A DNA stretch of 64,000 nucleotides from Eledone cirrhosa. Its lineage: Eukaryota. The stretch covers positions 344,534,001-344,598,000 of the forward strand of contig OZ024740.1 in assembly GCA_964016885.1 (NCBI GenBank). Reading direction: 5' to 3'. A program made the position numbers and the translations under genes. This document shows positions 16,640 through 64,000 of this stretch, one piece after another. Position 1 is the stretch's first letter. Each line of letters begins with the position of its first letter. The notes under the pieces were generated by a model that did no database searches, was not told where the DNA came from, and saw only the letters and a program-made list of their open reading frames with translations.

Positions 16640-17411
16640 TAGTATGTTTAATAAATTTAGTATAGAGATTTTCTATGTATATTTAACTTAATTTTATATC
16701 CATAAGAGAAATAAACAGAAACTTTGAATGGATAAACTTTCGAAAATAGGAGAAACTATCAAACAATAAAAAATAAAAATATAAGAAATATGTTCTCCTT
16801 TTTAGAGCCCTAAGTATATTTCTCTAGAATAGTTTATTATATTTATTTATATTTAAGAAAAGTTATTTTTACTTGAGTGTATAATCAGTCAAAAAGATGA
16901 AGGAATCTAATGATTTATTGACAGGTTCAATATATTAATAGAATTAATTAATTAATTATATATTACATTTTAAATTTATATTTAAACGTTGAGTTTAATC
17001 TATGTCTACAGCAGCTGAATAAATTATTCCTTAAGTTCAGGGAATTTTTGGTCTTTAATATAAAGAATATTTGCTCTATACAAAGATCACATTTTTCTGA
17101 AGAGGAGTAAAAAGGAGTAGCTTTTGAAATAATATTCCAAATCAACGAATATTCAACGTTCTTTAGTTTGAGGTCCCATAATAGGCTAGATAGAGAAGTT
17201 GAAGATTTTTTGTTTGGATCTGTAAAATAATTTTTATGATTATTGAAGCTGGATTTAAACTCTGTCGAAGTGGATCCCGCATAATTAAATGAATTTAAAT
17301 TAGTTTTTACATTACAATTATATACTATATTTTTAGCTAAGCAATTGTTATTTAACGGACAGTTAGATTTATTTCTACAGTTACATTTATCAAATTGGAT
17401 ATTGCTTGAGT

Positions 17412-17415
<4 letters not shown>
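16640..17415 (-). mobile_element. Penelope-like element GIY-YIG fragment
   Basis: CNCRNKSNCPLNNNCLAKNIVY..YAGSTSTEFK..NNH..LWDLK..CDLCIEQ..LN..SCCRH; 5' side abuts (TA)n; left boundary approximate. Confidence 0.85.
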
Positions 17416-17447
<32 letters not shown>

Positions 17448-17527
17448 CAAAATACAAAAATATTATATATATATAAAAATAAAAAAAAAATGTGGAAGGG
17501 GTAAACAAATAGTTGGGAATACGACAA

Positions 17528-17566
<39 letters not shown>

Positions 17567-17760
17567 AGGTATAAATGTTTATAGCTGATTTAGAGCACTC
17601 AACAAGTTCCTGGACCAAATAATCAATGAAAATAAACATTAAATCACTCTGTATGTAATTATGCATATACATACACTTATATACATACACACACAATCAT
17701 ACAAATATATATATATACACATATATACATACACACACAATCATACAAATATATACACAC

Positions 17761-17804
<44 letters not shown>

Positions 17805-17965
17805 TAGAATTGGAGCTCTGAAATAGCAATATATATATAAATGTATATATAATGTATTTTGCAATACACTTTATGCTTAATTAAAAGCATTTTGAAGACC
17901 GTATGCTATTGTTTTAGAGTAGTGACAAACTCACTTACTTTAATCTCAGCAAACAAGGGGAGATA

Positions 17966-18010
17966 AGCCGACAAGGCCTTGTTTCGCATTTATTGATTCT
18001 TATCAAGGCT
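17966..18010 (-). ncRNA. Type I hammerhead, U3-A8 variant (helix II mismatch)
   Basis: Same as 18910-18954 but GAAT replaces GCAT in helix II. Confidence 0.65.
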
Positions 18011-18284
18011 AACTACTCCCTCCTGTCTACTGATATCACTGATGTTATATTCTTATAGAATTCTAGTAAATAATCAGGAACTGATTATACAGAGCGGTTG
18101 CCGGTCAGGCAGAAATTAAAAATTAGAATTGGAGCTCTGAAATAGCAATATATATATGAATGTATATATAATGTATTTTGCAATACACTTTATGCTTAAT
18201 TAAAAGCATTTTGAAGACCGTATGCTATTGTTTTAGAGTAGTGACAAACTCACTTACTTTAATCTCAGCAAACAAGGGGAGATA

Positions 18285-18328
18285 AGCCGACAAGGCCTTG
18301 TTTCACATTTATTGATGCTATCAAGGCT
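18285..18328 (-). ncRNA. Type I hammerhead, U3-A8 variant (1-nt core deletion)
   Basis: Core reads TTGATA, helix II 3' strand ATGT; probably inactive. Confidence 0.55.
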
Positions 18329-18584
18329 AACTACTCCCTCCTGTCTACTGAGATCACTGATGTTATATTCTTATAGAATTCTAGTAAATAATCAGGAACT
18401 GATTATACAGTGCGATTGCCGGTCAGGCAGAAATTAAAAATTAGAATTGGAGCTCTGAAATAGCAATATATATATGAATGTATATATAATGTATTGTGCA
18501 ATACACTTTATGCTTAATTAAAAGAATATAACATCATTATAATAATATAACATCAGTGATCTCAGTAGACAGGAGGGAGTAGTT

Positions 18585-18629
18585 AGCCTTGATAAGCATC
18601 AATAAATGCGAAACAAGGACTTGTCGGCT
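18585..18629 (+). ncRNA. Type I hammerhead, U3-A8 variant
   Basis: AGCC-TTGATAA-GCAT-caataa-ATGC-GAA-ACAAG-ga-CTTGT-C-GGCT; helix I extends across 18559-18652. Confidence 0.8.
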
Positions 18630-18909
18630 TATCTCCCCTTGTTTGCTGAGATTAAAGTAGGTGAGTTTGTCACTACTCTAAAACAATAGCGTACGGTCTT
18701 CAAAATGCTTTTAATTAAGCATAAAGTGTATTGCAAAATACATTATATATACATTCATATATATATATATATTGCTATTTCAGAGCTCCAATTCTAATTT
18801 TTAATTTCTGCCTGACCGGCAACCGCTCTGTATAATCAGTTCCTGATTATTTAATAGAATTCTATAAGAATATAACATCAGTGATCTCAGTAGACAGGAG
18901 GGAGTAGTT

Positions 18910-18954
18910 AGCCTTGATAAGCATCAATAAATGCGAAACAAGGCCTTGTCGGCT
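18910..18954 (+). ncRNA. Type I hammerhead, U3-A8 variant
   Basis: AGCC-TTGATAA-GCAT-caataa-ATGC-GAA-ACAAGGCCTTGT-C-GGCT; palindromic helix III, GUC triplet. Confidence 0.8.
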
Positions 18955-19142
18955 TATCTCCCCTTGTTTGCTCAGATTAAAGAAAGTGAGTTTGTCACTA
19001 CTCTACAACAATAGCACACGGTCTTCAAAATGATTTTAATTAAGCATGAAGTGTATTGCAAAATACATTATATATACATTCATATATATATTGCTATTTC
19101 AGAGCTCCAATTCTAATTTTTAATTTCTGCCTGACCGGCAAC

Positions 19143-20035
19143 ATTTTTCAGTGGTACACAAAGAACAATTCTTTGTGCCACTTTAGTAATCCCTCGAATG
19201 GACTAAAATAGACCAATCGATAGAGTACGGGATGTTTTTATCTTTGAATTCCCACACCTTATTTGCGAGAGCCGTTGCTGTTCTTTTATCAGAGTGTTTA
19301 AAAGAAGCGACATGTGCATAAAACCTGGTTTTGACCTGTCCTGAGTCATTCCAACATATCGTTCACTCCTGGCTGACTGGTTGTTAATCAAAGGTGTCAC
19401 TTTGGCCTCATATACAACGGATGTGGTATTACATTTGCCCTGTAATGGGCATTCATCCGGCTTCCTGCAACTGCATCCTGGATTTATTCTCGTACGATTA
19501 GAATTGATGATTTTAGACTTCATTGATGGGCAGCAAGAGTAACTGATTTTAACTATATTTCTATTAAATGTCTTATAATATCTATGATTAGGGGGGAAAA
19601 TGTTTGTCTAAGAGGTCAAGGAATTTCCTTCCTACATTAGTTTTGAGAGTTAGAGAGAATATGGGTGTTAAACAAATAATTTCCCTTTTCCTATTATTGA
19701 TATCAGTTTTAGGGGGGGGGGGGGAGTAGGTAAGTATTTAATATGTCCTGTAAAGCCGCTGTTATTAAGGGCTTTATTATAATAACGGGGCGGCTTTGTT
19801 AAACATGTCTAGAGACGAAGATAAGGTAGAAATCCTACGGCTAATATTGGGAATAAGATTTTTTTAAACTATAGGGGGATGGCAAGACTCTTTGTGTATA
19901 TATCTTAGATTTTCGTTAGGTTTATGATAAGGTTTAAAATAGGCAGTAAGTAGATCAAGATTAATGTCAAGAAAGTTAGCATTGGTAAGGTTCGTATCTA
20001 TAGTAATTTTAAGGTTTAGGTTAGCAAAAGTATTG
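19143..20035 (-). mobile_element. Penelope-like element RT-thumb plus GIY-YIG fragment (frameshifted)
   Basis: LKITIDTNLTNANFLDINLDL..PYHKPN..YIHKESCHP; CSCRKPDECPLQGKC..VVYEAKV..YVGMT; truncated after CSLCTTEK by the repeat array. Confidence 0.85.
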
Positions 20036-20116: not shown

Positions 20117-20401
20117 ATGTATATGTGTGTGTGCGTGTGTTGTTTATTACATAACTAATAAGCTCTGGAACCTACATAGAGCACTCTTTTTTCCTGGACC
20201 TTTCCAACGGAATTACTTCATTTACATACACACCCACACCCGCACACACATACACACATATATATATACATATATATGTAGGAGGTGAGTTTTATTGTAG
20301 TACAATAAAGCAATGCAGATATCGGATAAGAAGCACTCTACAGTTTGTAGGACTGGAGTATACATAATATAAGATCAAAAGATGGTCAAAGGAGTTCCAT
20401 G

Positions 20402-20472
20402 TATTTTATTATGCGCATTTCAAAAACAAACATCATCATGCAATAATATTTGTGTTTTCATCAGATAAAACA
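20402..20472 (-). ncRNA. Type I hammerhead (left arm of palindrome)
   Basis: Reverse complement of 20588-20658. Confidence 0.7.
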
Positions 20473-20587
20473 GGAGAACATGATATGAAGGCTAAAAAAC
20501 ACTTGTGGATAGTGCAGTTATTTTTAATATGTTGATTTAAAACTGCACTATCCACAAGTGTTTTTTAGCCTTCATATCATGTTCTCC

Positions 20588-20658
20588 TGTTTTATCTGAT
20601 GAAAACACAAATATTATTGCATGATGATGTTTGTTTTTGAAATGCGCATAATAAAATA
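20588..20658 (+). ncRNA. Type I hammerhead (right arm of palindrome)
   Basis: TGTTTTAT-CTGATGA-[AAAC ACAAATATTATT gcat GATGATGTTTGT TTTT]-GAA-ATGCGCAT-A-ATAAAATA; palindromic helix III, AUA triplet. Confidence 0.7.
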
Positions 20659-20869
20659 CATGGAACTCCTTTGACCATCTTTTGATCTTATATTATATAC
20701 ATATATATATATATATAGTAATAATAATAAATTTGAAGACTAAAATCCTAAGAGGGCTCGATAAGGATAAATATATATCAAATATATAAGAACCGCAGAG
20801 CAAATATTTATTAAAGTAACAGATTAAAGTTTAAGCAAATAATCGGTGCTATCACCCTTAACGGCATCT

Positions 20870-23989: not shown

Positions 23990-24868
23990 TTATAATAAAT
24001 TTAAAATTTAGGAATTTATAAATTTCCCGTTGGTTGGTTGGTTCCACAACCAGATGATTGTTTATATATTGTCAAAGTTCTTTCGTCACACATTATGTGA
24101 CCTCTTCAGTGACTGGGGATTATTTTCTTTGTTTTTGTGCCTCTCCTTTGTTCTGTCCTACGGCATCTTGTTTGTGTGTGTGTCGTGTGCTTAGTTTGCG
24201 CATGTGTTACATCCAGGTGTCTGTGTGTGTTTATATTTGTTTATTTATTTGTTTATTTACATGTTACTGGTTGGTTGTTTGTTCTATGTGCGTGTGTGTT
24301 TTCATTTTGTCCTTAATTGTAAGTTGTGATGTTGCTGTTCCATTCATGTTTTTTATTTAATTTTGGTTGGAGTTCATTTATGTTTATTGCCTCTGTGATT
24401 TGTCTAAACATTGCGTCTTTTCTGTGTGTAGATTCTATTTTTATTTCTATGTTCTCTAATTTACTCTTATGTTCTAGTTTAGCATGTTGGTAGAGTACAG
24501 ATGATTCTTTACTATCTTCAAGGTCTCGCCAGTGTTCAGTTATCCGTTCCCCTATACTACGAGCTGTCTCACCTATGTACACTATATTCTTATCTCTACA
24601 TTGTCCTTCAGTACATCTTATGCTATATACTACATTTCTAGTTTTACAGTTAATTTGGGGGCTTAATTTACAGATTATTCATTTCTTATCTATACAGGGA
24701 GGTCTTTGGAAAGGGTATGTATTGCTAATAAGTGTTTTTATGGAGGTACCTGGTCTTTCTACTATCTTATTATTGAGTTTATGTTTATCTAGGGTCCTTC
24801 TAAATTTGTAAGCTAATTCACCTCTAGGGGTTGTATCAATGAACATTACACTCTGGTATTTATTGCTA
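23990..24868 (-). mobile_element. Penelope-like element 3' end (GIY-YIG plus 3' region with HHR)
   Basis: [63 protein letters not shown]. Confidence 0.88.
24071..24113 (-). ncRNA. Minimal type I hammerhead, sense to the PLE ORF
   Basis: GTCA-CTGAAGA-G-GTCACA-taatg-TGTGAC-GAA-AG-aa-CT-T-TGAC. Confidence 0.78.
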
Positions 24869-27340: not shown

Positions 27341-27811
27341 ATAACAATACTTGAGTGCATTAGAGTTAAACACACTCGTCGTATTAGAGAAAAGACAGTA
27401 TAAGATATAGCTCAATGTTATCTAACAGAGCCGAAAAATTATATAAAAAATAAACAAAGAAGCCTTTAATTCATCAAAAATCTTTATTTGCTGACAGTGT
27501 TTCGTCCCATTAATAAGAACTCATCAGAGCAAGGAAAAAGACAAGTAGTATTAACGGCCAGAACAAGCCAAAACTGAGAAGAACAGCTAATGGTTATTTA
27601 TGAAAATTTTGGAAAATTATCATGGAAAGACATGCTAAATCTAATAGGGTGCATTTGTAAATAAAGACTATAGGGCAAGAGAGCAGGCAAGACATTAAAC
27701 AAACCCACGTTAGAAGTACAATATAAGCCCAATACTAGAAATACAACATGGTAATACAATGTGAGAATTATAATATACAATACAATACAATAGATAATAC
27801 AGAAATAAAAC

Positions 27812-60455: not shown

Positions 60456-60533
60456 ACCCACATTGCCGATAGGATTTACCTACATTGCCGATAGGATTTA
60501 CCTACATTGCCGGGAAATTGTTTATCATAAAAC

Positions 60534-61871
60534 ATGGCGGAACAACAAACAGCGGAGCTAATAAAGTTGTTTAGAGAACAGATGGAACAACAAATGCAAC
60601 AACACAAGAAAGATATGGACACTCTGATAAAACTGTTTGGTGCTCGAGATTCTGAACAACAGAGTTTATTAGCGTCGCCAGTTGCTTCGACACCAACAGC
60701 ATTCATCCCACCATTTGCTGCTTTTGATTCAACAACAGAACTATGGCCTGATTACTGGTCAAGATTTTGCACGTTTGTGGCTACTAACGCTGTACCCGAG
60801 CAACGCATGGCACAAGTGTTCCTGAATAATCAGACGGCTGCTATCTACAAACAACTTGCAAATCTGGCTGCTCAACAAAATCCGCCTAAGGATATCAACA
60901 AGTTGACAATGGACGAAATTGTTGACTTCATGAAAGAACAGTTCGACCCAAAACTTTTCATTGTGAGAGAACGTTTCAAGTTCTGGAGTGACATGCAACG
61001 GAAGCCAGGCGAAACTCTCCAGGAGCTGGCAGCACGTATACGTCGGGATGCAGCTACCTGTGATTTTCCTTCGATCACAAATCCACAAGATGAAGCTCTA
61101 AGACAGAGATTTATATGTTCTGTCAATAATGAAGCTGCGTTGAAGGCTATTTTCAAGATCAAGGATACAGAACTAGATTTCGCCCGTGCTGTCCAAGTTT
61201 CCATCGGGACCGAAGACGCAGCAAAGGTTGCCAAGGAAACTGTTTACGGTTCCAAAACCAAGCAAGTCTACAAGGTCCAGCAGAACAAGAACAAGGGTCC
61301 TCGAAAGAACCATCAGCAGTCTTATTCCACAGACCAGGAGATGTGCTACCGATGTGGAAAGGCCCACAAAGCGACAGACTGCCCCTTCAAAGAAGCCAAA
61401 TGTCATTTTTGTGACAAAAAGGGACATTTGCAAGCGGTGTGTAGAAAGAAACAACATCAGCAACGTAATCATCGCTCACAGAATTACGTGAAAAGAATCA
61501 CGAAAGCTGAGCTAGTCAAGGCGATCCTTGGTGAAGTTCCCCACGATACTCATAGTTTGAATGTGCCAATAACAATCCAGAACAGACTTTTCACAATGGA
61601 ATTGGACACTGCTACTACAGTCAATTTTGTTTCCTTGTCAGTTTGGAAACAATTAGGAAAACCGAAGCTGCAAGATGTCAAACATCGGTTTGAATCTGCC
61701 AGCAAGCACGACCTGCCCGTTCTGGGAACTTTCATGGGCCAAACCAAGGATCCAACGACCGGTAAACGGAATTCAATACCCTACATCGTCACCAAGATCC
61801 CTAATCTTAATTTGCTGGGACGAAACGCTATCCAAACTCTGGGAATTTCCGTGGACAATGCTCTAGGATAG
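60534..61871 (+). CDS. gag: Gag plus aspartic protease
   Basis: 445-aa ORF; knuckles CYRCGKAHKATDC and CHFCDKKGHLQAVC; protease MELDTAT...LLGRN. Confidence 0.85.
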   Translation: MAEQQTAELIKLFREQMEQQMQQHKKDMDTLIKLFGARDSEQQSLLASPVASTPTAFIPPFAAFDSTTELWPDYWSRFCTFVATNAVPEQRMAQVFLNNQTAAIYKQLANLAAQQNPPKDINKLTMDEIVDFMKEQFDPKLFIVRERFKFWSDMQRKPGETLQELAARIRRDAATCDFPSITNPQDEALRQRFICSVNNEAALKAIFKIKDTELDFARAVQVSIGTEDAAKVAKETVYGSKTKQVYKVQQNKNKGPRKNHQQSYSTDQEMCYRCGKAHKATDCPFKEAKCHFCDKKGHLQAVCRKKQHQQRNHRSQNYVKRITKAELVKAILGEVPHDTHSLNVPITIQNRLFTMELDTATTVNFVSLSVWKQLGKPKLQDVKHRFESASKHDLPVLGTFMGQTKDPTTGKRNSIPYIVTKIPNLNLLGRNAIQTLGISVDNALG

Positions 61872-64000
61872 AAAAGCATAGAGAGCCAGACCAAGAGTGA
61901 GAGTGCAGAAGTGATGCATCCAAAGACCTCAAATGAGCCCTATATTTCCATGCAACGAGATTGTCACAACATGTGTGATGAATTCCCAGATCTCTTCAAG
62001 CAAGAATTGGGATGTCTTAATGACTTCGAACTGGAAGTGAAGTTCAAGTCGGAGGCGACACCGGTCTTTCACAAGGCACGCCCGGTCTCGTTTGCTCTTC
62101 GTGATGACCTGGCCAAAGGTTACGAGGAAGGCATCGCCAAAGGAATCTGGAAGCCAGTACAGTACAACGAATACGGAACGCCAGTCGTACCGATTCGTAA
62201 AGCACATACTTCAGGCAACCTGAAGCCCAAACTACGGATTTGTGGTGACTACTCTGTGGGAATTAATGACGAACTTGCAGATCATCGTCATCCAATGCCA
62301 CTCCCAAAGGAACTGATGCAGAAGCTCGGAGGTGGATTCGGATACACAAAGATTGATCTTGCTGATGCCTATAATCAGATCAAGCTGGCTTCAGAAAGTC
62401 AACGCAGGCTTGCACTCAGCACTCACCGTGGGGTGCTCCTGCAGGAACGACTCCCTTTCGGAATCAAGTTAGCACCTGGTTACTTTCAGGAGATCATGGA
62501 AAACCTGACTCAAGATCTACCTGGTGTGGCCGTCTTCCAGGACGACATGCTCGTCAGTGGGAAAGATGCAAACGATCACCTGAACAACCTAAAGTGTCTG
62601 CTCACACGTCTGTGCGACAAAGGACTCAGATGTCGCCGTGACAAGTGCCAGTTTTCACTACCCAGTGTGGAATACCTTGGACACACCTTGTCGGCTGAAG
62701 GGATCGCGAAGGGATCCAAGGTCGAAGCAGTTTTAAAGATGCCACCTCCAACGAACGTCTCAAGCTTGAAGTCTTTCCTGGGTTCAGTTCAGTTCTATGG
62801 TTCAGCCACTCTATTACCTTACGAAAAAAACAACTACTTGGAAGTGGGGAGATGAAGAACAGTCAGCTTTCGATCAGTCGAAAAATGTGCTTTCATCGGA
62901 TCGAGTTCTGATACACTTCGATCCAAACAAAATTTGGGACTGGCTTGCGACGCGTCAAACGTTGGTATTGGAGCAGTCCTGTTTCATCGCTATCCTGATG
63001 GAAGCGAGCGCCCAATATCCAATGTGTCTAAGACTCTTACTTCTGCACAGCGTAACTACGGCCAAATTCAAAAGGAAGCCCTGGCCATCATATTTGGCTT
63101 GCAGAAGTTCTATCAGTATCTGTACGGACATCAGTTTATACTCGTAACTGACCACAAGCCACTGACATCACTGTTCAGTCCGAGGAAAGGGACGCCACTT
63201 CTCGCTGCTAAACCGACAAGCACGGTGGGCCCTGTGGCTGAACCAGTTTGACTACACCATCGAATATCGGAAAACAGCGGATCATGGCAATGCAGATGCC
63301 CTCAGTCGCTTGCCATTTGGTAATGACATCGACTTTGACAGGAAGGAAAATGGTGAAGACATGGACATGGTGTGCGCCATCAAAGCTCTCGGTCTTCAAG
63401 TCCAACCTATCGATGCTTACGTCCTCCGTCAAGAGTCATGGACAGATCCAGTGATATCTACAGTAATACGCTACGTCCGTGAAGGCAGGCCACCAAAGAA
63501 TACTGAGATCAATGACGAAGTCAATAAGTTCCGGAAGTTATCGGATTCACTCAGTATCTGCCACGGATGCCTTATCCATGGATCGAGAGTTGTGATTCCA
63601 CATAGCTTACAGCCAAAGATTCTCAATCTTCTGCATCTCGGACACTTTGGCATGGAGCGCATGAAACAATTGGCAAGAACTGCTGTTTATTGGCCTGGTA
63701 TCGATGCTGCTATAGAGAAAACCAGTCGACAATGTGATTCGTGTGGTGAACATCAAAACCAGCCATCCAAGTCTCCAGTTCACCCATAGATGTTACCTGA
63801 AAAGCCGTGGAGCCGCTTACACCTGGACCACGCAATAAATTTCATGGGCAGTAATTGGTTGGTGATCACGGATGCTTATTCCAAGTATCCATGCATTCAT
63901 CCTACGTCATCCATATCCTCCAGAGCCACTTTAGATCTGCTTGAAGAAGACTTTGCGCACTTCGGATTTCCTCGCACGCTAGTCACCGATAACGCACCAA
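61872..64000 (+). pseudogene. pol: Pol (RT, RNase H, integrase) with frameshifts and a stop
   Basis: RICGDY, KIDLADAY, LPFG, FQDDML; LACDAS, EALAI, TDHKPL; HLGH..CDSC and HLDHA; frameshifts near 62800, 62935 and 63215; stop at 63787. Confidence 0.9.

Follow-up and report, generated by a model that had tools for sequence, protein, structure and literature searches.

A decayed two-armed insertion in Eledone cirrhosa belongs to a non-coding repeat family with a predicted U3-A8 hammerhead ribozyme and is most likely a retrozyme copied by PLE enzymes

What kind of element placed several hammerhead motifs with a U3-A8 core at positions 17801-19142 of this 64,000-nucleotide stretch of Eledone cirrhosa DNA (the window), and by what route did it arrive? 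The earlier note had described a single tandem array of four hammerheads in near-identical units of about 319 bp. The units (318-325 bp) and the four hammerhead copies stand, although three of the four hammerheads are damaged; the single array does not, as self-BLAST returns 17801-18524 as the reverse complement of 18538-19142. There are instead two back-to-back arms, joined 5′ to 5′ and each pointing outwards (Table 1), with Tandem Repeats Finder giving a period of 318 and 2.3 copies for 17801-18524. Unit numbering here starts at window position 18824, which makes U3 position 91 and C17 position 127. The outer 3′ end of the left arm, at unit position 299, is the long end with a 31-bp tail and adjoins a (TA)n tract. 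The right arm stops at unit position 319 where 268 is expected, so its outer end was probably lost through deletion. The locus is one aged, decayed copy of an abundant, protein-free mobile repeat.

Table 1. Features of the locus and its surroundings, in window coordinates
Feature	Position	Strand	Description
Third-family PLE endonuclease fragment	17002-17385	-	Interrupted at (TA)n by PLE-A
PLE-A distal 3′ UTR and 3′ end	17415..17800	-	Left of the array; includes the (TA)n tract entered by the retrozyme
Left arm	17798..18524	-	2.3 units: unit positions 211-319, 1-319, 1-299
Hammerhead copy 1	17943..18036	-	Core intact (U3 18006, C17 17970); helix II mismatch GAAU/AUGC
Hammerhead copy 2	18262..18354	-	Broken: 1-nt deletion at A8/A9, C11.1>U
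5′-5′ inversion junction	18525..18548	.	AATATAACATC doubled around 8-nt filler
Right arm	18538..19142	+	1.9 units: unit positions 40-319, 1-319
Hammerhead copy 3	18559..18652	+	Core intact (U3 18589); predicted cleavage 18625/18626; helix III palindrome mutated to ACAAGGACUUGU
Predicted 325-nt monomer	18626..18950	+	319 nt plus 6-nt TA expansion; lies between the two plus-strand predicted cleavage sites
Hammerhead copy 4	18884..18977	+	Intact UUGAUAA (U3 18914, A8 18919), GCAU/AUGC, ACAAGGCCUUGU; predicted cleavage 18950/18951
PLE-A fragment	19143-20035	-	5′-truncated, frameshifted; RT thumb, Cys linker, GIY-YIG-type endonuclease

The hammerhead itself is much as first described. The core UUGAUAA is present at 18589 (+), 18914 (+) and 18006 (-), the sequence bears out helix II (GCAU/AUGC), the palindrome ACAAGGCCUUGU and the GUC triplet, and motif folds reproduce a helix I made of a 4-bp proximal part, an internal loop and a distal helix of ~20 bp. 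The hammerhead core is complete, with a 3:8 Watson-Crick pair, U4, G5, A6 and A9, G12, A13 and A14, the A15.1-U16.1 pair, and H17. When damage is scored against the subfamily majority, copy 4 is the only one of the four to combine an undamaged core with undamaged short helices, its single mismatch lying in distal helix I; copy 3 has lost the perfect palindrome. That the motif is not a chance occurrence follows from the 733 genomic matches to a tight U3-A8 pattern (TTGATAAGCAT N4-8 ATGCGAAAC), compared with 0 in the reversed control, and from the fold of the 100-nt motif (z -4.3). As the earlier note had anticipated, standard searches miss the variant core: an Rfam scan of the whole 64-kb window returned no hammerhead at E<=1, and a local scan of 231 nt gave Hammerhead_HH9 at 19.5 bits (E 0.015), short of the gathering score of 52. 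A score below gathering is expected of a variant core and weighs little against hammerhead identity.

A genome-wide copy-number check, also proposed in the earlier note, shows the unit to be a dispersed, multicopy family without LTRs or an RT of its own. A first look at the 3.0-Gb genome gave 2,281 candidates; among the 40 scored there was no near-identical copy of the window's unit, the next best being 97% identical, so the family may be inactive at present. A loose U3-A8 pattern has 3,613 matches (311 in the control), and since 88 of the first 100 matches listed belong to the family by reading, we estimate ~3,200 U3-A8 cores genome-wide. The unit is non-coding, the longest stop-free frame across a real 4-unit array being 52 codons; simple patterns detected no Pol III A or B boxes in it, and a phage collection contained no match. 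For closer study we assembled 312 unit pieces in 105 insertion groups, a sample that is not random and comprises the 30 best DNA matches, the first 30 pattern matches on C1, 41 chosen C1 stretches and 7 C3-A8 matches. Sampled insertions hold 1-5 pieces each, with one array of 18 units, which runs head to tail at G000:C1:82390450-82395960 (L099) with ~80% identity and many damaged hammerheads. Subfamilies are 80-97% identical to the window unit, and mean within-subfamily divergence is 3.9% for the window's subfamily and 6.2-6.4% for three others.

The subfamilies differ in ways that keep the ribozyme structure. Helix II occurs as GCAU/AUGC, GCAC/GUGC, GUAC/GUAC and GCUU/AAGC, helix III as ACAAGGCCUUGU, ACAGGGCCCUGU and ACAGAGCUCUGU, and pair 2.1:1.1 as C-G or U-A. 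Across 37 distinct copies, helices I-III covary between subfamilies, with 97.5% of cells paired and both-sided changes in 7 of 25 helix pairs (including 3 of 4 in helix II), counts that reflect few independent events on a ladder-like tree; 13 of 500 shuffles scored as high, and slid controls were 28-42% paired. None of the 16 core positions differs among the four subfamily majorities, compared with 41 of 319 unit columns, and every core position is 93-99% conserved among 208 copies.

We also report a sister subfamily with the canonical C3-G8 pair. A pattern search for a canonical sister with the same helix II found none; it took a looser pattern, asking for a canonical core and a 12-nt helix III, to bring the sister out. 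This pattern has 472 matches (7 in the control), 91 of the first 100 listed being one motif (CUGAGGA AUAC/GUAU ACAGAGAUCUGU). This amounts to about 430 canonical copies. Of the 15 C3-G8 loci examined, 13 can be aligned with most of the unit, at ~77-80% identity, and the insertions at the aligned loci have the same ends and two-arm form, with no joined ORF. In an unrooted tree of 55 copies, for which positions 3 and 8 were masked and subfamily A was thinned by dropping 22 of its 30 near-identical rows, the five C3-G8 copies group together as a single clade (100/100) beside a U3-A8 GUAC copy; this clade sits at one end of the ladder and the window's subfamily at the other. The existence of the sister subfamily means that positions 3 and 8 switch together within the family, and on this unrooted tree, judged from sequence, U3-A8 and C3-G8 appear as a single double change within one family. 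The C3-A8 mismatch is confined to 7 scattered copies, against 733 with U3-A8. The proposal that U3-A8 is compensatory is thus supported within the family.

How the unit was copied can be read from its insertions. The outer 3′ ends in the 105 groups favour two unit positions, with 65 ends at 268 and 51 at 299, while 5′ ends are spread; 62 groups are two-armed, and 41 of the 45 two-arm insertions in which both ends are canonical have one end of each kind (p 5e-9 vs 50%), that is, fixed ends 31 bp apart on opposite arms. Canonical ends run into at least (TA)4 in 121 of 147 cases. An inverted 5′-truncated arm, a tail at one end and a microsatellite target are therefore all present, and the published description of EN+ PLE insertions names the corresponding features: a truncated copy in inverse orientation, a tail of 30-40 bp on one of the ends, and a bias for microsatellites (PMC8557442). 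The unit shares no sequence, terminal sequence included, with either of the two PLE families compared (PLE-A and PLE-B, below), so it is insertion geometry by itself that assigns the element to PLE machinery.

The geometry also bears on the template. Sampled insertions show no 5′-end pile-up at the cleavage site (128), as cleaved linear templates would give. Between the cleavage site (position 127) and the DNA ends there are 141-172 nt, and 125 of 142 arms span such a site, a count inflated by the choice of loci for holding a hammerhead; a cleaved linear monomer primed at 268 or 299 would allow at most 141 or 172 nt to be copied, so longer arms need a circle or an uncut multimer. Shared non-majority bases number 3.6/kb between tandem neighbours, 2.9/kb between opposite arms and 0.45/kb between insertions, i.e. 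copies within an insertion share them 6-8 times more than copies across insertions. Sharing that extends across arms fits a single template, but it also fits a linear multimer from a homogeneous source array, or later gene conversion.

At this locus, a PLE coding fragment (PLE-A), absent from the earlier note, directly adjoins the array and is interrupted by it after CSLCTTEK. Read through its frameshifts and stops, it contains an RT thumb, a CSCRKPDECPLQGKC linker and a GIY-YIG-type endonuclease, motifs that we take to be those of a C-terminal-EN PLE of Neptune/Nematis type; Atlas neighbours of the PLE-A pieces include a GIY-YIG cluster (score 0.96, 23% of members), and Pfam, NCBIfam and PDB gave no significant match for them. 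PLE-A has 1,710 first-look candidates in the genome, and all 29 of the other copies compared run past CTTEK into an unrelated 3′ UTR, 0 of 29 carrying the retrozyme unit. Because the distal 3′ UTR of PLE-A lies across the array from the ORF, the array is nested in the (TA)n tract of a PLE-A copy, from which ~320 bp or more is missing between the two pieces, deleted along with the outer end of the right arm. The adjoining PLE fragment is thus the element that the retrozyme landed in, not its source. As PLE-A in turn interrupts an endonuclease fragment of a third PLE family, the nesting has three levels. PLE-B, another family (2,614 first-look candidates, ~90% identity), occupies 27285-25290 (-) of the window as a long, broken copy with RT, linker and endonuclease that ends in (TA)n; its 47-bp 3′ end is also found within the 3′ UTR of several PLE-A copies. 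The window thus holds at least three (TA)n-associated PLE families.

Several other elements were noted along the way. A second two-armed hammerhead element at window 20270-20720, seen at several other loci, has a canonical CUGAUGA core, a long helix II and the palindrome AUGCGCAU, with hammerhead copies at 20464 (-) and 20596 (+). Separate repeats carry hammerheads at 24109 (-; CUGAAGA, helix II GUCAC/GUGAC) and at 27527 (-; canonical core, helix III ACACUGU); the latter, superficially similar to the unit, lies in a separate TA-bounded element. A second, unrelated U3-A8 family (UUGAAAA GCAG/CUGC, helix III ACCGGU, triplet GUA) is likewise two-armed in (TA)n and occurs at L003, L070, L086, L106, L116, L119, L123, L132 and L140. 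At 60531-63786 (+) there are ORF pieces with stops, presumably from the gag-pol of a Ty3/gypsy-type LTR retrotransposon. The flanks of the sampled loci include at least ten distinct hammerhead-bearing repeat families, making this genome very rich in PLE-related ribozyme elements.

Our conclusion, held with good confidence, is that a non-coding 319-bp family bearing a U3-A8 type I hammerhead motif inserted here in two-armed form and has since decayed. Most probably the family is a non-LTR retrozyme that the RT and endonuclease of a PLE copied into (TA)n microsatellites; the non-autonomous retrozyme proposed in the earlier note is supported by a dispersed, non-coding and ORF-free unit. That note had also offered an amplified pLTR, and the directly adjoining PLE coding fragment, the PLE-type integration marks and the U3-A8 hammerheads known from Cercyon PLE pLTRs (PMC4209133) would all suit a unit that is an ordinary pLTR, or the 3′ end of an autonomous PLE, with the array as a heavily truncated PLE copy. 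We nevertheless consider this unlikely. The adjoining ORF and the right arm run in opposite orientations, the distal 3′ end of PLE-A itself sits on the far side of the array, and the other PLE-A copies enter an unrelated 3′ UTR. The earlier note had named a unit attached exclusively to PLE ORFs as the outcome that would count against an independent retrozyme, and the sampled insertions do not show it. In none of the 105 groups (92 of them flanked by 1 kb or more on each side) does the unit flank or end an RT-EN ORF in sense; a PLE fragment is nearby in 18, in mixed orientation, and is contiguous only in this window, the single group with a joined ORF, where the unit lies antisense inside a different PLE. 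A unit is preceded by a further unit, in runs of as many as 18; 66 junctions yielded no recurring non-unit flank, and of 25 PLE-B loci one held a separate, diverged unit. Two leads from spaced copies came to nothing as autonomous parents: same-strand hammerheads 3.25 kb apart on C1 belong to one array that a Tc1-like element and a further insertion have broken up, and three copies 4.6 kb apart on C18 are a segmental duplication without an ORF. The Tc1/mariner-like element (L091:2760-4356) is inserted inside the array at a TA run, at unit position ~268. Given a sample of 105 groups, there may be a rare autonomous parent (<~3% of copies) or a distant Naiad-type ORF.

A retrozyme could also have been moved by an enzyme other than that of a PLE, such as a LINE or a microsatellite-targeting non-LTR element; the unit has no sequence link to PLE-A or PLE-B, and the 2020 paper on animal retrozymes left both LINEs and PLEs open in its available text (PMC7229834). 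The insertions have no poly(A) tail, however, their two fixed ends 31 bp apart on opposite arms match the pattern described for PLEs, and the window itself holds at least three (TA)n-associated PLE families, so that we judge this reading very unlikely. Least probable of all is DNA-level spread of the unit as a satellite or MITE-like repeat whose hammerhead would be a dead relic. The 18-unit array and one segmental triplication would suit this reading, and most genomic hammerhead copies do carry damaging changes, but both-sided helix changes around an invariant core, across subfamilies 77-95% alike, point to selection on RNA structure during spread, and the insertions' random 5′ truncation, their inversion and their fixed 3′ ends bear the stamp of reverse transcription.

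Returning to the retrozyme reading, folding suggests how the ribozyme might be controlled. In the fold of a single motif, GCCUUG (2.3 to G5) is predicted to pair with CAAGGC (15.2 onwards), burying the core. Representatives of six sequence classes give this lock P(G5:C15.2) values of 0.95-0.99; the value drops to 0.37 for the ACACAGCUCUGU class (a U3 subfamily) and is about 0.5 for the C3-G8 sister. The lock hairpin recurs in the predicted circular monomer of each of the four units folded in this form (z -4.5 to -6.7), and the window's predicted monomer folds at z -5.95. We also folded 31 real adjacent pairs of units without constraint and scored the 12-bp inter-unit palindrome duplex: P>=0.99 in 15 of 18 pairs with two perfect palindromes (0.59, 0.00 and 0.00 in the remaining three), and formation in 2 of 13 pairs with an imperfect palindrome (0.96, 1.00). 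Both dimers whose predicted structures were drawn out are double hammerheads, complete and with their cores unpaired. For the adjacent plus-strand units of the window itself the score is 0.40. Covariation extends to the inner pair 15.5:16.5 (A-U 18, G-C 13), although in a monomer this pair would close a 2-nt loop, which is impossible in the monomer hairpin. Lock and dimer are both nearest-neighbour energy-model predictions that ignore tertiary contacts, and they suggest that a monomer or circle would be locked and a tandem dimer active as a double hammerhead. A subfamily with an extra A between C11.1 and G12 (AUGCAGAAAC; L100, L109, L122, L124, L133 and L138), an insertion that adjoins the core, has a weaker predicted lock in some copies.

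Lock pairs 3:15.4 and 2.1:15.5 are kept in 72 and 73 of 77 insertions, respectively, corresponding to one to two tree events each. An in silico C3-G8 swap weakens the lock in A15.4 subfamilies (0.97 to 0.32, 0.99 to 0.49) and not in G15.4 ones, and we therefore reject the general claim that U3 is required for it. Dimer activation is already known for animal hammerheads (PMC4209133), and Li et al. obtained cleavage in only 1 of 9 predicted Xenopus retrozyme dimers (bioRxiv 10.64898/2026.07.22.740005). The cleavage assay that the earlier note had suggested, on 18559-18652 as a monomer, would likely give a false negative, since this copy is mutated and monomers are predicted to be locked.

These elements can be assembled into a putative cycle. 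In the transcript, the 12-nt palindromes of neighbouring units would pair, and the resulting double hammerhead would cut after GUC; in the released monomer or circle, GCCUUG of the core's 5′ strand would pair with CAAGGC of the palindrome's 5′ half, locking the ribozyme. The monomer would be ligated into a circle. A PLE endonuclease may then nick (TA)n, and the nicked DNA could prime at the unit's internal AU run, at position 268 or, for the other DNA end, 299. Reverse transcription would pass the cleavage junction, round a circle or along an uncut multimer, yielding permuted, 5′-truncated and partly tandem arms that would then be joined 5′ to 5′. More tentatively, and as a possibility that we would rate below even, the family may be a self-gating retrozyme: helix III, a 12-nt palindrome, and a sequence in the core's 5′ side that mimics the 3′ strand of this helix would together make a two-state switch, such that only multimers cut and the circle stays locked; C3-G8 and U3-A8 would have switched with the lock kept (3:15.4 being C-G, U-G, then U-A), leaving a rare core held by two pairings, and the PLE RT would read the locked circle round, starting at each of the two ends of a single (TA)n break.

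By structure and genomic behaviour, as judged from its DNA, the family is a metazoan non-LTR retrozyme with a predicted ribozyme. It agrees with the retrozymes described in the available text of PMC7229834 and bioRxiv 10.64898/2026.07.22.740005 in its non-coding, AT-rich tandem unit within the 150-450-bp range, one type I hammerhead per unit, palindromic helix III, thousands of copies, self-paired predicted circle and co-occurrence with PLEs, and its predicted dimer dependence resembles that of axolotl Rtz331/353. It departs from them in having a U3-A8 core with a C3-G8 sister subfamily and a helix III that is a 12-nt palindrome, compared with 1-2 bp and a tetraloop, and its mostly short two-armed inverted (TA)n insertions with a 31-bp tail are not described for retrozymes in the text available from these two sources. 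The circle is here predicted to block its own core, whereas most animal circles leave the hammerhead free; self-blocking circles are uncommon among animal retrozymes, with some mussel ones as exceptions (PMC7229834). The predicted lock thus offers a concrete, mutable explanation for a question raised in that paper, how an animal retrozyme circle avoids cutting itself. Mobilisation of retrozymes by PLEs has so far been proposed from co-occurrence and pLTR similarity, without a mechanism in the text available (PMC7229834; bioRxiv 10.64898/2026.07.22.740005), and the insertion geometry here is genomic evidence for it. The insertions share with those of EN+ PLEs (Craig et al. 2021, PMC8557442) 5′ truncation, partial tandems, the inverted 5′-truncated copy, a 30-40-bp tail and the preference for (TA)n, but the present element has no RT or endonuclease of its own.

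The hammerheads of Schistosoma Cercyon PLEs, with about 1,300 PLE-type motifs bearing U3-A8, share the U3-A8 covariation, type I form, palindromic positions around helix III and PLE association (PMC4209133). According to the same source they are minimal, with a 7-8-bp helix II, a short helix I and little or no helix III, and most of them stand singly or in the pLTRs of an element that carries an ORF; the present motif combines a 4-bp helix II with a long helix I containing an internal loop, and the search for a joined ORF came up empty. Covariation from C3-G8 to U3-A8 occurs in nature (Perreault et al. 2011, PMC3088659), and that paper, as far as its available text goes, gives several U3-A8 examples and refers to earlier demonstrations of their activity in vitro; here ~3,200 copies and ~430 canonical sisters stand in one lineage. 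As one ribozyme scaffold has been amplified in a single genome in two natural forms, U3-A8 and C3-G8, their rates can be compared directly. Retrozymes as a class and the U3-A8 core have both been published already, and this is not a new kind of element; what the family adds is the U3-A8/C3-G8 sister pair and the predicted lock and dimer switch.
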